A stretch of DNA of 64,000 bases from Escherichia phage vB_EcoM_EC001. Positions 2,526 through 21,288 of this stretch are shown piece after piece; position 1 is the stretch's first letter; each line of letters starts with the position of its first letter. Location of the stretch: sequence record MN445185.1, one strand, 5' to 3'. The translations under genes were made by a program, and so were the position numbers. The notes beneath the pieces were generated by a model. It was not told the DNA's origin and did no database searches. It saw nothing but the letters and a program-made list of their open reading frames with translations.

Positions 2526-3300
2526 ACAGTGGGCTTCGGCCCACTAACCCTATTCGAGCCGTGATACTTACTCAGATTGTGCGGGTTGATGTCCCGCATG
2601 AGCCGGTAGCAGCTCAGACCTACGGTAGACCAATAAATCCGTAGCAGCCAGGTACACAAAGCACCAGGTCGCTTGTACAGGATGCTGGGTATCTGACCGG
2701 TCATAACCTCATTCGATACGAGACACGTTTATGCATGAAATACTCCAGTACATCAGGATGTTGATTTCCAACATCCGGTTCTGGGTATTCAGTCATGTTT
2801 GGTTTACAGGCGATGGGTTTTCCCGTAAGGGCCCCACTTACAGACTGGCGTCTCCACGACAACCGTCCCTAGGGGACAGGCAAGCACCGGCCCATTAAGC
2901 CGCTACGCTACGCCTGTAAATCCACAATCTGATAACCGAATGGGATTGAGTTCCCAGTGTTAGGGTGACTGTGTGTCACCGTAGGCGCGGTACCTCATAC
3001 GGCCGGTACGCCACGAATGTACGTGATAGCGGGTGGTGCTTGGAGACGCTAAGACCTGACCTTACGGACAGGCTCAGAAGAAGAAGTCCATCACCTGTAT
3101 TCAGAAATGAATTTAGGTTAATTATTGGAAGTGGCGAAATCACTTACGTGATAACTTAGTAGTATGCAACGAACAATACCAGAGTGACTTTACGAGGTTA
3201 CTGTGGTATATGTCGGTGCGCCGGGCAACGTGTTGCCGCAGATAAGCCCGAGGGAGCTGAGTGCACTAACACACGCCGGGATGCACCGGCACCTTACAAC

Positions 3301-3373
3301 GGCTTTGTAGCTCAGGTAGGTAGAGCAGCCTCTTCGAGGAAGGTCGCTGGTTCGAGACCGGTCAAAGCAAGAG
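3301..3373 (+). tRNA. tRNA-like element, possibly a degenerate tRNA or pseudogene (anticodon arm does not fold canonically)
   Basis: Canonical D arm gtagctcaggtaggtagagc and T arm gctgg-ttcgaga-ccggt, acceptor 6 of 7 bp, but only 19 nt between D and T arms so no standard anticodon stem-loop. Confidence 0.35.
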
Positions 3374-16805: not shown

Positions 16806-18659
16806 ATGGTAAAAATCGTTGACTCTAACAACAACGCTCAGCAGAACAACACTCAGACTCAAGACACCGCACCACTGGGCGGTCTGGGCAACGAGACTGT
16901 AAAAGTGCAAACTGCTGTGCCGGGTACTTCTACTGTCAGCCAATTCGATAACGCATTTGGCATCCGCAACATCAGCACCTATGCAATGCACTTCACCAAC
17001 CTCCTGGATGAGCTGAAGAAAAGCAACGAATACCTCAACGCATTCCGCTGGGGCACCATCGTCGGCGTGGGTAACGAAATGGGTTCCGCGGCGTATGTCG
17101 CAGGCCAATGGCAGGGCCACTGGCTGTATGGTATCATCTTCTTTGAACGCGGTCAGTCTCTGCGTCTGAAAGAAACTACCAACAACGGCCAGGAAGACTA
17201 CTACACCATCACTGAACTGTTCAACAAAGACGTGCTGGCAGTAGTACAGAAAAACATCATGGAAGCGCATGGTCTGACCAATGCGAACTTCATGATCATC
17301 AACTCCGTACCAGACCTGGGTAAAGTTCTGGATGCTGAGTGGGCACGTACACTGATGGGTCAGATGATGATGGGCATCTTCGGTCGTATCGCAGGCTACC
17401 TGGGTACGCTGAACCTGCGTAAGCATGACCGTTATCAGGCCGCAGTAATGCCGCTGGAAGATGGTGCGGTTGTTGATGCTAACGGCCACGCACAGCGTGC
17501 TGATTTCGCAATCACCGTTGAGCACAGCCCAAGCAACGTAACCGATGCCACTCCGACTCTGCTGGACACCAATCAGGTACAGGTGTATCCGCGTGTATCC
17601 GGTACCGGTTTCGTCAATATGCGTTTCACCGGTCAGAAGCCTGTCGTTAACGGCGTCTACGACCTGAAACAGCTGCAGGCTGAAATCGTAGTAAGTCTGA
17701 TCGATTCTCAAACTGAAGGTGCAATGGCACCGTATGAACGTCAACTGCTGCTGCTGGCTGCATTTGCAGAAATCGCGGCAATCGGTGGCTGGCGTGACCT
17801 GTTTGTGAAACGTCTGAACAAACAAGATCGCAAGTTCTCCCGTGTGGCAGAATACCTGTCCTGGGGTGCTGACGCTCGTCCTGATGTATCCAAAATCGAC
17901 GGTAGCCGTGAAGCTATCGAAGGTTGCCTGGATATGTTCGCACCGCGTGAAGCAGCACTGGTAGTTAGCCATCGTGCCGGTAACGGCCTGGGTGGTCTGT
18001 CTACTTTGCTGTCTGAAATTGCGGTCGGTTACGACAACTCTCTGAAACAGCTGCTCGCTATTCTGAATTCCATGTCCCCGCGTGATCAGAACGGCGAAGT
18101 TGTTGCAGCGACCAGCTTCACTGCAGTATTTGCTTCTGCACTGAAAGCACAGCTGGGCGATGCCTTCAATGGTACCATCCATTGCAGCCACATCGTGAAA
18201 GCAGCCGTACCGACTGTTTCCGGTGTTTACACCGGTACTGCACAGAAACGTAGCTTCCAGGATATGGACCTGATTTCCGTTGTTACCAAACTGGGTGATA
18301 ACGCGAACGACGTCTATAGCTACCTGAACGCACAGTCCTACAGCCACCGTGAACTGAACGAGCGTCAACAGCGTATCTACATGCTGAAACTGGCCGCTTC
18401 TCTGTTCGCATCCAAAGCACCGCAAGCTACCGGTGAATCTCTGGATATGGCTATCAACCCGATCTTCGGTAAATGCCTGCTGGACTTCGTCCGTAACAAC
18501 TGCACCTGGTCTATGACTGGTGTAAATGCCTACAACACGATGGCGACCTCTCTGTTCTTCAACAACGGTGGGGAAGACTTCACGCTGTCTGGCAACGGCC
18601 TGTCTGCAAGCGGTTCCGATTTCGGTCTGGGCGTGACTCTGAGCAACTTCAAACTGTAA
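16806..18659 (+). CDS. abundant protein with host-like codon bias; candidate phage-nucleus shell protein (chimallin-like), function unconfirmed
   Basis: 617-aa ORF with strong preference for ctg/ccg/ggt/cgt/aac codons, two promoter-like motifs upstream, TAAGGAA RBS, low-complexity N-terminal tail, immediately upstream of the RNAP beta-prime N-terminal gene. Confidence is for the CDS, not the function. Confidence 0.7.
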   Translation: MVKIVDSNNNAQQNNTQTQDTAPLGGLGNETVKVQTAVPGTSTVSQFDNAFGIRNISTYAMHFTNLLDELKKSNEYLNAFRWGTIVGVGNEMGSAAYVAGQWQGHWLYGIIFFERGQSLRLKETTNNGQEDYYTITELFNKDVLAVVQKNIMEAHGLTNANFMIINSVPDLGKVLDAEWARTLMGQMMMGIFGRIAGYLGTLNLRKHDRYQAAVMPLEDGAVVDANGHAQRADFAITVEHSPSNVTDATPTLLDTNQVQVYPRVSGTGFVNMRFTGQKPVVNGVYDLKQLQAEIVVSLIDSQTEGAMAPYERQLLLLAAFAEIAAIGGWRDLFVKRLNKQDRKFSRVAEYLSWGADARPDVSKIDGSREAIEGCLDMFAPREAALVVSHRAGNGLGGLSTLLSEIAVGYDNSLKQLLAILNSMSPRDQNGEVVAATSFTAVFASALKAQLGDAFNGTIHCSHIVKAAVPTVSGVYTGTAQKRSFQDMDLISVVTKLGDNANDVYSYLNAQSYSHRELNERQQRIYMLKLAASLFASKAPQATGESLDMAINPIFGKCLLDFVRNNCTWSMTGVNAYNTMATSLFFNNGGEDFTLSGNGLSASGSDFGLGVTLSNFKL

Positions 18660-18687
18660 TCGAATCGGTTACTGAGTAGTTAGGAAA

Positions 18688-18727
18688 CGGACGGGGGCTA
18701 ACGCCTCCGTCCTTCCCTCTTTTTTTG
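18688..18727 (+). terminator. intrinsic terminator (ggacgggggctaacgcctccgtcc plus T-run)
   Basis: GC-rich hairpin followed by T-run after 16806..18659. Confidence 0.55.
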
Positions 18728-18741
18728 TTGAGGTTGACAGT

Positions 18742-20076
18742 GTGAGAAAGGTACCAAAATTCTACGGAATATCCGGCCGGTTGGTTAGTCAGGATAACTA
18801 TTTGTCCGATTTGCAAATAGAAGCTGCTGCCAAAGGTATTAAACCACCCACTATTATTAACGATGTCGCCGTTAACGGGGATGCGATCGAGGTTGCTGAA
18901 CTTATCGATCGCATGGTACAGAACAGAATCGTTGACGAAGAACTGAACTCTGCACCGATTTGTAGTTTGGATTGTCCGGCACCGATCGCGCATCGTTACA
19001 ATCTCGGTTGTAAGTGTCCGACGTGTGGCTATGTTGTAACTGAACATCGAATTGAATCCGATGTCTGGTTACGTGCACCTGATGAAATGGGTAACTTCGT
19101 CAACCCACGATTCTGGGCAATGTTCAATGCTTTCTTTAATAGCAAGTTGAAGAAGTTTGAACGTAACAAGGTCACTATCGAACGCGGTAATGACTTGATG
19201 ATGTGGATGATTGACCCGTATTACCGTATAGAAGAACCAGACGGTAAACGCGCACATGCTGTGAAACGTGTATTGGAAGAACATGGTTTCGTTCGTGGCT
19301 TGCGCAATCTGGTTGATAACCACGTTAGTATCTTTAACATCCTTACCACGCCAGAAGCCTGGAAGGAAATCTTCGCACCTAATCGGCATAACGCCGCTGA
19401 AGGTGAACGCTTACGTTTACAATGGAAGGAGCTATTCGAAACGCAACGACACGCATTCTTCCCAAGACACTTACCGCTAATCTCCTCTAAACTTATCGTT
19501 ACTGAGGAAGGTCGTCGTGGTGTCATGGTAGACCCAGTGTTCACGGGTGCTATTGATGCGGTGAAAAATATCGCGTTGCTCTATACGCGGCGTAAAGCGA
19601 TCGAACCACGTTTTCTGATTAGTCGTGCTTTGAAAGCGAACCGTCAGTTAACGTACTTCCACATGGACTTCCGTCGTGAGTCTATGGAAGGTAAACCGGG
19701 TGACTATCGTGCGAAATTGGGTTCTACCCACATCCCGTTCGGTGGTCGTGCAACCATCTCACCTATCTCAGAACCACATGATGCCTGGAAGTTAAAAGCA
19801 CCATGGCGTTGGATGGTTGGGTTGATGTCGACCCACATCGAGAACAAACTGCTACGACGCGGTTATTCGTCACGGCAGTGTGAACGTATCGTTGCGAAAG
19901 CGGCAATGCAGTATGACCCGCTTGTAGATGAAATCTTTAAAGAACTGATTCGTGAATCCCCAGGCGGTCTTGGGATCATGGTCATACCGCTACGTAACCC
20001 AACGCTGGTACAGTTGTCTATTCAAACGCTGTACATCGATGAAGTTGTTACCGATGTTAACCAGTGTTCGCTGCGT
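18742..20076 (+). CDS. multisubunit RNA polymerase beta-prime-like subunit, N-terminal fragment, exon 1 (3-prime boundary approximate)
   Basis: GTG start. Zinc-ribbon CSLDCPAPIAHRYNLGCKCPTCG; LRNPTLVQLSIQ...CSL resembles RQPTLHRLGIQ...HPLVC just upstream of the catalytic loop. ORF continues 58 codons into the intron to stop at 20250. Confidence 0.65.
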
Positions 20077-20453
20077 ATCTCTGACCGTGTGATCAAGATG
20101 GCTAACGGTTCGAAAAGAGCCCCATCGGACGGGAAACCTCTGATGCGTATTCTCCTGAAATGCTGGGAAACCCTAAAGCGTATCTACCAGAAATGGGGAC
20201 GAAAGTCTGAAACAACAGATACGATGGCCTACGCTAAACAATACTGCTAACGGTTGTGATAATGGGTAATCAGCAGCGAAGCCTCGTGAGAGGAACGTTC
20301 AACGACTATCGCTGAAATGCGAGTAGGGGTCCCAGTGGACTTCGAAGTGGGAGAACACCTAAGGCGATAGCTATGGTGAAGATATAGTCTGTGCCTTATC
20401 GAGAGATAAGGAGGGTGTCTTAGCACACCTGCTGTATACGGAAACGGTATACG
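20077..20453 (+). ncRNA. group I self-splicing intron (no internal ORF), boundaries +/- about 10 nt
   Basis: Conserved core elements R (GTTCAACGACTA, 20297..20308) and S (AAGATATAGTC, 20379..20389) with complementary gacta/tagtc. Frame changes between flanking coding segments; beta-prime homology stops at CSLR and resumes at DKQDFDGDQ. Confidence 0.75.
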
Positions 20454-20693
20454 GTGGACAAACAGGATTTCGATGGCGACCAGTTCCAGGTACGTTTACC
20501 AGTCGATGAAACTGAGATGAAGTTGGCGCTCCAATTCCGTCCAGATAACGGCTTTATGTCTTCTACTGATGTGGACCGCGTAGAACACGGCATGGTTTTA
20601 CATAACGAGCTAATCAGTATGCAGAACCAGTTCCTTATTGAAGCAGATGAGGATGATGAAGAAGGCATTCCGTTGGAAGCGGTGATGGGCTAA
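20454..20693 (+). CDS. RNA polymerase beta-prime-like N-terminal fragment, exon 2 (catalytic DFDGDQ loop)
   Basis: Begins VDKQDFDGDQFQVRLPVDETEMKLA, matching [23 protein letters not shown]; ends 79 codons later. Confidence 0.65.
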   Translation: MDKQDFDGDQFQVRLPVDETEMKLALQFRPDNGFMSSTDVDRVEHGMVLHNELISMQNQFLIEADEDDEEGIPLEAVMG

Positions 20694-20706
20694 TAGGAGT
20701 ATTGTA

Positions 20707-21288
20707 ATGTGGCTACAAGGTAGCACGGTGTGGACGAAACAGACCGAAGGTAGCGGGGCACTCAGCGTATTCAAAGAATCGTTTTCGCTGTCTAGCCTGG
20801 CACCCGATCTCGTTGACCGTGTAAAAGAACATTGTCAGGACTTAATCTCACTGGAGCGTTTCCGTGAAACATTCAGTACCGCACGTAAATTACGTTATAG
20901 CGATGCGGTAGAGATGGTAAGACAGATCGAAGAGTTGGGTGAATTCCAGTTCGCCAATGCTGCTTTACAGCCATTCCTCGTTGCCATGCCGGAATATCGT
21001 AAGTTGTATAATGACGGTATGGCGACTGGTTATGAGAACGGCTTTTCGCGGTTGGATGTGTTCAAAGGCAATGCGTATATGCGTACCGATGACCACTTCC
21101 GCGAAGCAACATCGGGCATTTCGACGAAGTACGACGAAGATAAGATTTGGCAATGGGCTACCAATGAAGATCGTGCAGTACGACTGAGTCGAATCGATAA
21201 AGTGGATATTCAACTTAACTGGGCACGCATGTCAGCTTTCGACTGGGAAGATGGTGATCCCTGTTCGGAACTTGGCGCGACGTGTTAA
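20707..21288 (+). CDS. hypothetical protein
   Basis: 193-aa ORF followed by terminator. Confidence 0.55.
   Translation: MWLQGSTVWTKQTEGSGALSVFKESFSLSSLAPDLVDRVKEHCQDLISLERFRETFSTARKLRYSDAVEMVRQIEELGEFQFANAALQPFLVAMPEYRKLYNDGMATGYENGFSRLDVFKGNAYMRTDDHFREATSGISTKYDEDKIWQWATNEDRAVRLSRIDKVDIQLNWARMSAFDWEDGDPCSELGATC

Follow-up and report, generated by a model that had tools for sequence, protein, structure and literature searches.

Organization of the interrupted polymerase gene

The DNA examined here is a stretch of 64,000 nucleotides from Escherichia phage vB_EcoM_EC001 (sequence record MN445185.1), referred to throughout as the window, and our subject is an RNA polymerase gene within it and the group I intron that interrupts that gene. 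This part of the DNA shares 98-99% identity with SPN3US-like jumbo phages (genus Seoulvirus), and the coordinates of its coding sequences (CDSs) are those of Escherichia phage vB_EcoM_Lh1B. The gene lies on the forward (+) strand, on which all window positions below are given, and is composed of exon 1 (18742..20109), ending in ...ATG GCT AAC GGT (MANG), an intron of 356 nt (20110..20465), and exon 2 (20466..20693), which opens with DFDGDQFQVRLPVDETEMK... and closes with the stop codon at 20691-20693. Exon 1 is colinear with SPN3US_0023 and belongs to phrog_2987; exon 2 is likewise colinear with SPN3US and aligns to positions 418-477 of the phrog_2987 profile. As set out below, the segment 20110-20465 is very probably a functional self-splicing group I intron, subgroup IA-like and devoid of an open reading frame (ORF) of its own, situated between the MANG and DFDGDQ codons of the gene for the beta-prime N-terminal subunit of the non-virion RNA polymerase (nvRNAP).

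Among the PHROGs families the interrupted ORF falls into phrog_2987 ('RNA polymerase beta subunit'; E-value 2e-151). The protein predicted from the spliced exons matches PDB entry 7ogp_A (phiKZ gp55; E-value 1.4e-38) and also reaches bacterial beta-prime, with E-values down to ~1e-5 and an alignment that passes through the NADFDGDQ loop; the structure of phiKZ gp55 has a contiguous 417-DFDGD-421 (PMC8287921). Judged by these matches the gene is the ortholog of phiKZ gp55, with the nvRNAP beta-prime N-terminal subunit as its predicted product. An earlier note on this DNA, which was made from the letters and a list of ORFs, had named a beta-prime gene; beta-prime stands, and the 7ogp_A match corrects the gene to the N-terminal subunit of the jumbo-phage nvRNAP. 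Pfam returned no match for either separate exon product or for their neighbours.

Borders of the intron

SPN3US has an allele without the insert, and in the alignment the window is longer by exactly 356 nt. Colinearity with the SPN3US_0023 protein, which is uninterrupted across the site (...SDRVIKMANGDFDGDQFQV...), continues to position 20109 (...CSLRISDRVIKMANG) and restarts at 20466 with DFDGDQ (GAT TTC GAT GG). Because the extra DNA aligns between GCT AAC GGT (T20109) and GAT TTC GAT (20466), the intron is 20110-20465. A U thus stands at position -1 (U20109) and a G (the omega G) at the last intron position (G20465), after which the 3' splice site is placed by the intron-less allele; the tail ...ACAAWCAG| is also found in the introns of phages SaP7 and VB_ZK_P1. 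Ligation of the exons yields ...VIKMANG|DFDGDQFQV in one frame of 531 codons, the protein from which (531 amino acids, aa) differs from SPN3US_0023 only by Y431F. The predicted nucleotide junction is ...ATGGCTAACGGT|GATTTCGATGGC, and the tryptic peptide predicted to span it is MANGDFDGDQFQVR.

These borders revise several figures of the earlier note, which had rightly put the insertion immediately upstream of the DFDGD codons, where exon 2 now starts. The 5' homology had been thought to end at 20076, 33 nt short of its actual end, and to resume at 20454, 12 nt too early; the VDKQ that precedes DFDGDQ in that frame is intron-encoded, being the translation of the conserved 3' tail GUGGACAAACAG. 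The length is accordingly 356 nt and not ~377 nt, and the exon 1 frame continues through 46 codons of intron sequence, not 58, before the TAA at 20248-20250 that ends the read-through in unspliced RNA (ORF 18742..20250).

Splice sites after U20099 or U20103, combined with 3' sites at 20455-20459, were considered and rejected, as they give either an intron that does not end in G or a product unlike the intron-less protein. An assembly artefact is ruled out by the five independent isolates that carry the intron. Within 20110-20465 the ORFs of at least 40 aa have no Pfam match and L1 is a loop of 5 nt, so that no endonuclease ORF was found there, as the earlier note had maintained. A scan of the whole window with Rfam at E<=0.05 revealed no second intron, and a promoter and terminator scan of 18400-21000 gave nothing above shuffled sequences.

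Structure of the intron RNA

The Rfam group I model RF00028 matches 20090-20411 with 69.4 bits, where the gathering score is 50, and an E-value of 1.6e-15; the match extends over the full length of the model (positions 1-253 of 253). The minimum free energy (MFE) of the segment has a z-score of -3.9, it folds better than 100 of 100 dinucleotide-preserving shuffles, and the unguided MFE fold recovers P1, P2, P5a/b, P7.1/7.2 and P9.

The complete P1-P9.2 structure was drawn by hand on an alignment of the window intron with introns of the SaP7, Proteus phage 7, VB_ZK_P1, phiKp_32 and PDCC-1 types, and base pairs were counted on these 6 sequences, representing 4 lineages, using composites with the L1 inserts trimmed (MAFFT misaligned P1 and the 3' end of PDCC-1). 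In the resulting structure of 85 pairs 91.1% of the cells are paired, a share that falls to 39-46% once the 3' partners are shifted by 1-3 columns; 39 of the 85 pairs show changes on both sides, and none of 500 shuffles was as good. Of the checks that the earlier note had suggested, a covariance-model search, a P1-P9 fold and a continuous frame across the ligated exons thus all turned out in favour of its proposal, and the group I intron that it placed in a beta-prime-like polymerase gene is borne out by the RF00028 match, the intron-less allele and a covarying fold that includes P1.

P1 (20107..20121) joins GGU|UC at 20107-20111 to the internal guide GAGCC at 20117-20121, closed by the loop GAAAA, and is 100% paired in the 6 sequences. 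The U20109.G20119 wobble at the splice site is invariant (6/6), and three of the five pairs are compensatory, with guides that match the exon end of each phage (GGU/GCC, GCU/GGC and GAU/GUC; 4 lineages). Since the guide covaries with the exon end, the 5' splice site is independently confirmed. The alternative P1 in the Rfam alignment (CAAGAUGGC/GCCCCAUCG, with three marked mismatches) conflicts with the junction given by the intron-less allele, and the covarying P1 of 5 bp was used instead.

P2 (20123..20145) is a hairpin of 8 pairs, all of them paired throughout and three changed on both sides, with an invariant GAAA tetraloop at 20133-20136. The conserved core P3-P8 contains the P3/P7 pseudoknot, in which every P3 and P7 cell is paired. 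P3 is formed by 20150..20156 with 20349..20355 (7 pairs, 100% paired, 4 changed on both sides). The P4-P6 domain (20161..20298), delimited by the Rfam alignment and the pair counts, contains P4 (20161-66/20270-75), which is 100% paired and has two pairs that vary on one side but no compensatory change; P5 (20170-73/20264-67); P5a (20179-85/20217-23; 5 of 7 pairs changed on both sides); P5b (20197-200/20205-08; 3 of 4), which has a GAAA loop; and P6 (20276-77/20297-98 plus 20282-85/20290-93), which has a GUGA loop.

The R and S elements lie exactly where the earlier note had seen them, R as GTTCAACGACTA at 20297-20308 and S as AAGATATAGTC at 20379-20389, and its GACTA/TAGTC segments do pair as P7 (20304-08 with 20385-89), with support from covariation. 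By sequence, Rfam alignment and pair counts, 20297..20308 (GUUCAACGACUA) comprises J6/7 and the 5' strand of P7 (20304-20308), and 20379..20389 (AAGAUAUAGUC) comprises J8/7 and its 3' strand (20385-20389). The five pairs of P7 are 100% paired, and one of the five is compensatory (U-A to C-G). P7.1 (20309-12/20319-22; 3 of 4 pairs changed on both sides) and P7.2 (20326-32/20337-43; 5 of 7) are inserted between P7 and the 3' strand of P3. Helices in this position are the hallmark of subgroup IA in the Michel-Westhof classification, as in T4 td, and from their position we assign the intron to a predicted IA-like type, with IA taken as a whole and IA1 and IA2 undivided.

P8 (20357..20377) contains the 11-nt GAAA-tetraloop receptor, CCUAAG at 20358-63 and UAUGG at 20372-76, which is kept in the relatives; three of its six pairs are compensatory, and the closing pair covaries as A-U, G-C and U-A. 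Because P8 carries this canonical receptor and both L2 and L5b are invariant GAAA tetraloops, it is likely that one or the other docks into P8. Fold and pair counts further support P9 (20394-400/20405-11, GAGA loop) and P9.1 (20414-18/20425-29), which together occupy 20394..20429, and P9.2 (20432-35/20451-54, with an inner stem and a GAAA loop), which extends to 20454.

One repeat was noted in passing: the 10-mer GCTAACGGTT occurs both at 20101-20110, across the 5' splice junction, and at 20238-20247, in the P5 extension. All of the relatives keep its GCUAA part, whereas CGGTT is found in the window type only. The match between the copies is improved by each of the three synonymous exon changes typical of intron-containing alleles; this may be chance.

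Allele states and mobility in Seoulvirus

Among the best 30 database records, to which the allele survey refers, five have the ORF-less intron, three a longer insert, the ORF-containing intron, and 22 none, the last comprising SPN3US and ~21 other Seoulvirus genomes. The ORF-less intron is 98-100% identical in phages 1252, JN03, Lh1B, SPLA3 and SPLA5c, all of them plaque-forming and independently isolated. SaP7 and Proteus phage 7 have an intron of 1404 nt at the same junction, with an ORF of 288 aa that encodes HNH_3 and NUMOD1 domains. In SaP7 this ORF lies in the L1 loop, closed by a 9-bp stem, and its product is homologous to phiKZ gp56 (27% identity, E-value 1e-18) and to the 339-aa L1 ORF of phiKp_32 (E-value 1e-14). 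Three states of the homing cycle are therefore present at one site within one species: an empty site, an ORF-less intron, and an intron that encodes an HNH/NUMOD1 protein. Since its relatives have either an empty site or the HNH/NUMOD1 intron with the ORF in L1, the window intron belongs to a mobile-intron system, from which we infer homing; by occupying the site, it would remove the target sequence of the endonuclease. A scan of IMG/VR with the exon flank returned SPN3US itself and nothing else.

The exon sequence next to the site differs between the alleles. GCT AAC GGT (20101..20109), which includes the obligatory U at -1, precedes the site in every intron-containing allele examined, and GCA AAT GGA is found in every intron-less Seoulvirus allele examined (five and three alleles compared), the two differing by three synonymous third-position changes. 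The intron-less site reads ATGGCAAATGGA|GATTTCGATGGT. Exon 1 has 28 mismatches to SPN3US, and 4 of these are in its last 16 nt. Such clustering of exon changes at the site is compatible with co-conversion in the course of homing, with selection on P1 pairing and on the U at -1, or with both.

How the ORF-less form arose is a separate matter. The usual fate of homing introns, in the homing cycle model, is loss of the ORF, and the window intron could be an SaP7-type intron from which the endonuclease ORF was deleted, with which it shares the site, the P1 exon pairing (GGU/GCC), the exon flank GCT AAC GGT and the overall architecture. However, identity between the two introns is only 78.6% over 315 nt of core, against 98.6% between the flanking exons. 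Core divergence so far above that of the host genomes favours separate acquisitions over mere ORF loss, pointing to independent invasions or to replacement from different donors, and we consider a deletion origin unlikely.

One set of the database records behaves anomalously. Those of Salmonella phage SPFM1 (LR535901) and of other SPFM phages align to the window in 26-28 disconnected blocks of ~60 nt and in no other way, and in SPFM1, which was checked, the blocks are in reversed order, as if the lines of a FASTA file had been reversed without complementing. This pattern is likely a deposition artefact, one that also corrupts the CDS annotation.

Proposed splicing and its alternatives

Following standard group I chemistry, as suggested by the anatomy described above, the pre-mRNA would fold into P1-P9.2, and an external guanosine bound at P7 would attack the phosphate after U20109, presented by the U20109.G20119 wobble of P1. 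The 3'-OH of U20109 would then attack after the terminal G20465, and the exons would be ligated into the single 531-codon frame, giving one polypeptide in which the catalytic Asp triad is restored. Translation of unspliced RNA could go no further than 20250, short of the Mg-binding aspartates; splicing would therefore be obligatory for middle and late phage transcription.

Several points weigh against a self-splicing intron. Both catalysis and splicing in vivo are what we infer, for the Seoulvirus phages with the intron allele, from sequence. The covariation comes from four independent lineages only, and the structure was drawn from the same sequences on which it was counted. The window has a weak P10 of three A-U pairs that are offset by two, so that the choice of 3' splice site must rest on the terminal G and on contacts in the P9 region. 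The exon 1 frame, open for 46 codons through P2-P5, could disturb folding under coupled transcription and translation; nucleus-forming phages keep the two processes apart (PMC12908238), and one may speculate that so long an open frame in the core is tolerated for this reason. Spliced reads of the analogous phiKZ intron were missing from a long-read RNA data set (ONT-cappable-seq, PMC10914365), an absence that is countered by the mass of native phiKZ gp55, 56 kDa, which is that of the spliced product (PMC4666361).

Some of the same observations could be accommodated by an intron that no longer splices alone and that, to reach an adequate rate in vivo, needs the particular environment of the phage nucleus or a protein from phage or host (a maturase-like factor or a chaperone); this is a question of degree. 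A weak P10, a P1 of only 5 bp, the long open read-through into the core, the missing phiKZ spliced reads in ONT-cappable-seq (PMC10914365) and the uncoupling of transcription from translation in nucleus-forming phages (PMC12908238) would all be compatible with such dependence. The core and periphery, though, are complete and conserved, with two GAAA loops, the 11-nt receptor and P7.1/7.2, and give no sign of a missing domain, which makes a need for helpers rather improbable.

That the gene is truly split, with polypeptides from 18742-20250 and from a GTG-initiated 20454-20693 assembling non-covalently and the RNA structure irrelevant, is hardly credible: RNA polymerase subunits of jumbo phages are naturally split elsewhere (PMC7598289), the Lh1B, SPLA5c and JN03 records annotate two CDSs and an in-frame GTG stands at 20454, but the break would interrupt the catalytic loop, a contiguous protein of 531 aa is encoded by intron-less alleles of the same species, the intervening RNA is under selection for group I pairing, exon pairing included, neither the 46-aa read-through tail nor the 79-aa product has a family match outside the exon part, and the equivalent GTG frame of VB_ZK_P1 reads VDNQDFDG and stops after 5 more codons, so that the GUGGACAA tail is conserved as RNA and not as coding sequence.

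Related introns at the NADFDGD codons

Introns in the same gene of SaP7, Proteus phage 7, VB_ZK_P1, phiKp_32 and PDCC-1 match RF00028 with 52-66 bits; in the first two the core has 78% identity to that of the window. Those of Raoultella phage VB_ZK_P1, Klebsiella phage phiKp_32 and Photobacterium phage PDCC-1 score 59-66 bits and have cores ~72% identical to that of the window (PDCC-1 partly). The VB_ZK_P1 and phiKp_32 introns occupy the identical site (NA|DFDG), but the phiKp_32 intron, unlike that of the window, has an HNH-type ORF of 339 aa in L1, and in both phages, unlike the window, there is a second insertion 12 nt further on.

The gp55 ortholog of these two phages is thus interrupted twice. 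Intron 1 is at 2483-2847 in VB_ZK_P1 (PV662128), with the same coordinates in phiKp_32, and is followed by a 12-nt mini-exon, GATTTTGACGGT (2848-2859, DFDG), and then by an insertion of 307 nt (2860-3166) that precedes GAT ACC ATG (DTM...). The second insertion begins GGT|AAACGTATTGCC, mimicking the P1 of intron 1; for the VB_ZK_P1 copy Rfam gave nothing even at E<=1, and the only partial relatives are those in jumbo phages of Aeromonas. In Klebsiella phage Miami (MT701590, 1861-3271) NADFDG is contiguous and an insertion of ~1.4 kb follows at G|D, before DTMYC; the 5' part of this insertion gives a sub-threshold group I match (42.9 bits, E-value 7e-9) and the remaining ~1.1 kb has no annotated CDS.

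In PDCC-1 (NC_048821) a related group I intron of 392 nt at 2455-2846 has its junction one codon downstream (NAD|FDGDQ), and its guide is adapted to GAU (P1 GAU|AG / CUGUC). The site and guide together suggest that the insertion site may shift within one intron family. Gene 55 of Pseudomonas phage KTN4 (KU521356) has an additional group I intron (87.5 bits) with its own ORF of 273 aa, at HRN|PTL. That intron is missing from phiKZ, where HRNPTL is contiguous; both phages share the gp56 intron at N|ADFDGD.

Different chimalliviruses thus occupy four distinct insertion points, which are N|A in phiKZ, A/G|D in the window and VB_ZK_P1, D|F in PDCC-1, and G|D in Miami and VB_ZK_P1, and the ~15 nt of their nvRNAP beta-prime gene from which NADFDGD is read appear to be a hot-spot for introns. 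We tentatively propose that this hot-spot may be contested, the object of an arms race among related HNH homing endonucleases, in which the ORF-less intron of the window would persist as a form of immunity, destroying the target of a co-circulating SaP7-type endonuclease; we hold this to be possible, though somewhat doubtful. If true, the immunity would mirror in reverse the 'weaponised intron' effect of PhiPA3 gp210, in a genetically tractable phage of E. coli and Salmonella.

Annotation and neighbouring features

In the GenBank records of the intron-containing gene (OK428535, MT799840, OR413581, OR413585 and PP695294) neither an intron nor a joined CDS is marked; the entries are a 'beta subunit 1' with a 'beta subunit 2', a pair of CDSs called 'RNA polymerase beta subunit', or hypothetical proteins. 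No fewer than five deposited genomes (Lh1B, JN03, SPLA3, SPLA5c and 1252) thus mis-annotate an essential polymerase gene, by way of a pair of unrelated CDSs or of hypothetical proteins, where the correct product would be one spliced protein of 531 aa. We came across no paper that reports a Seoulvirus intron, and the word does not occur in the SPFM and Lh1B genome papers. The element is a genuine, intact and unannotated group I intron, of a kind that phiKZ and other related phages were already known to carry, and current understanding is not overturned by it. Seoulvirus grows on E. coli and Salmonella, and amber-mutant genetics exist for SPN3US, which would make it a convenient natural system for intron-mediated competition among nucleus-forming phages, of which PhiPA3 against phiKZ is the one case demonstrated so far. 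Seoulvirus could also reveal whether splicing differs when transcription takes place apart from translation.

Directly upstream of the polymerase gene is an ORF of 617 aa (16806-18659), a member of phrog_8316, of unknown function. The syntenic gene in PDCC-1 is annotated as a nuclear shell protein (chimallin), and the ORF is thus a putative nuclear-shell gene; Pfam and PDB sequence searches with it gave no match to support that label. Elsewhere in the window, Rfam and ARAGORN identify a tRNA-Trp (CCA), and Rfam only a second, weak tRNA-like match (33.6 bits against a cut-off of 29), the two lying at 2141-2216 and 3301-3370.

Comparison with known systems

The closest precedent is the intron of phiKZ gene 55, which is a group I intron in the orthologous gene, at the catalytic NADFDGD codons, with the same R and S core motifs and a short P1. 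In the phiKZ record PHIKZ055 ends ...KAPN|, the intron carries PHIKZ056 (gp56, HNH), and the next exon (PHIKZ056.1) starts |ADFDGDQ; the near-identical KTN4 copy scores 74.7 bits with Rfam. The phiKZ endonuclease ORF directly follows the 5' splice site, as does that of the SaP7 allele. The two introns differ in that the phiKZ intron has an ORF and that of the window has none, and their cores are ~76% identical over ~97 nt only. The earlier note had left it to a search whether the insertion site was already described: an intron in this gene is indeed known from phiKZ, but its insertion point (N|A) is 3 nt, or one codon, upstream of that in the window (G|D) and not the same.

The T4 td, nrdB and sunY introns (IA2) likewise interrupt protein genes at a conserved catalytic site, and have P7.1/P7.2, a short P1 with a GGU exon end, and R and S elements GUUCAACGACUA / AAGAUAUAGUC, all as in the window. 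They differ in residing in genes of nucleotide metabolism, in carrying GIY-YIG or HNH ORFs in P6 or P9 loops, and in having an early in-frame stop, where the window intron leaves the frame open for 46 codons.

Among jumbo phages, RNA polymerase genes with group I introns are well documented, examples being phiKZ gp56, gp72 and gp179 (Mesyanzhinov 2002, as cited in PMC10914365 and PMC11512511) and 201phi2-1 gp273/274 (PMC11512511). The PhiPA3 gp210 intron, which acts in phage-phage competition (Birkholz et al. 2024, PMC11620839), is, like that of the window, a group I intron in a chimallivirus multisubunit RNA polymerase gene, beside conserved aspartates, and its HNH endonuclease targets the intron-less allele of a co-infecting relative (PMC11620839). 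Unlike the window intron, it interrupts the beta subunit of the virion RNA polymerase (gp209/211), carries an endonuclease, and has a role in competition that has been shown experimentally.

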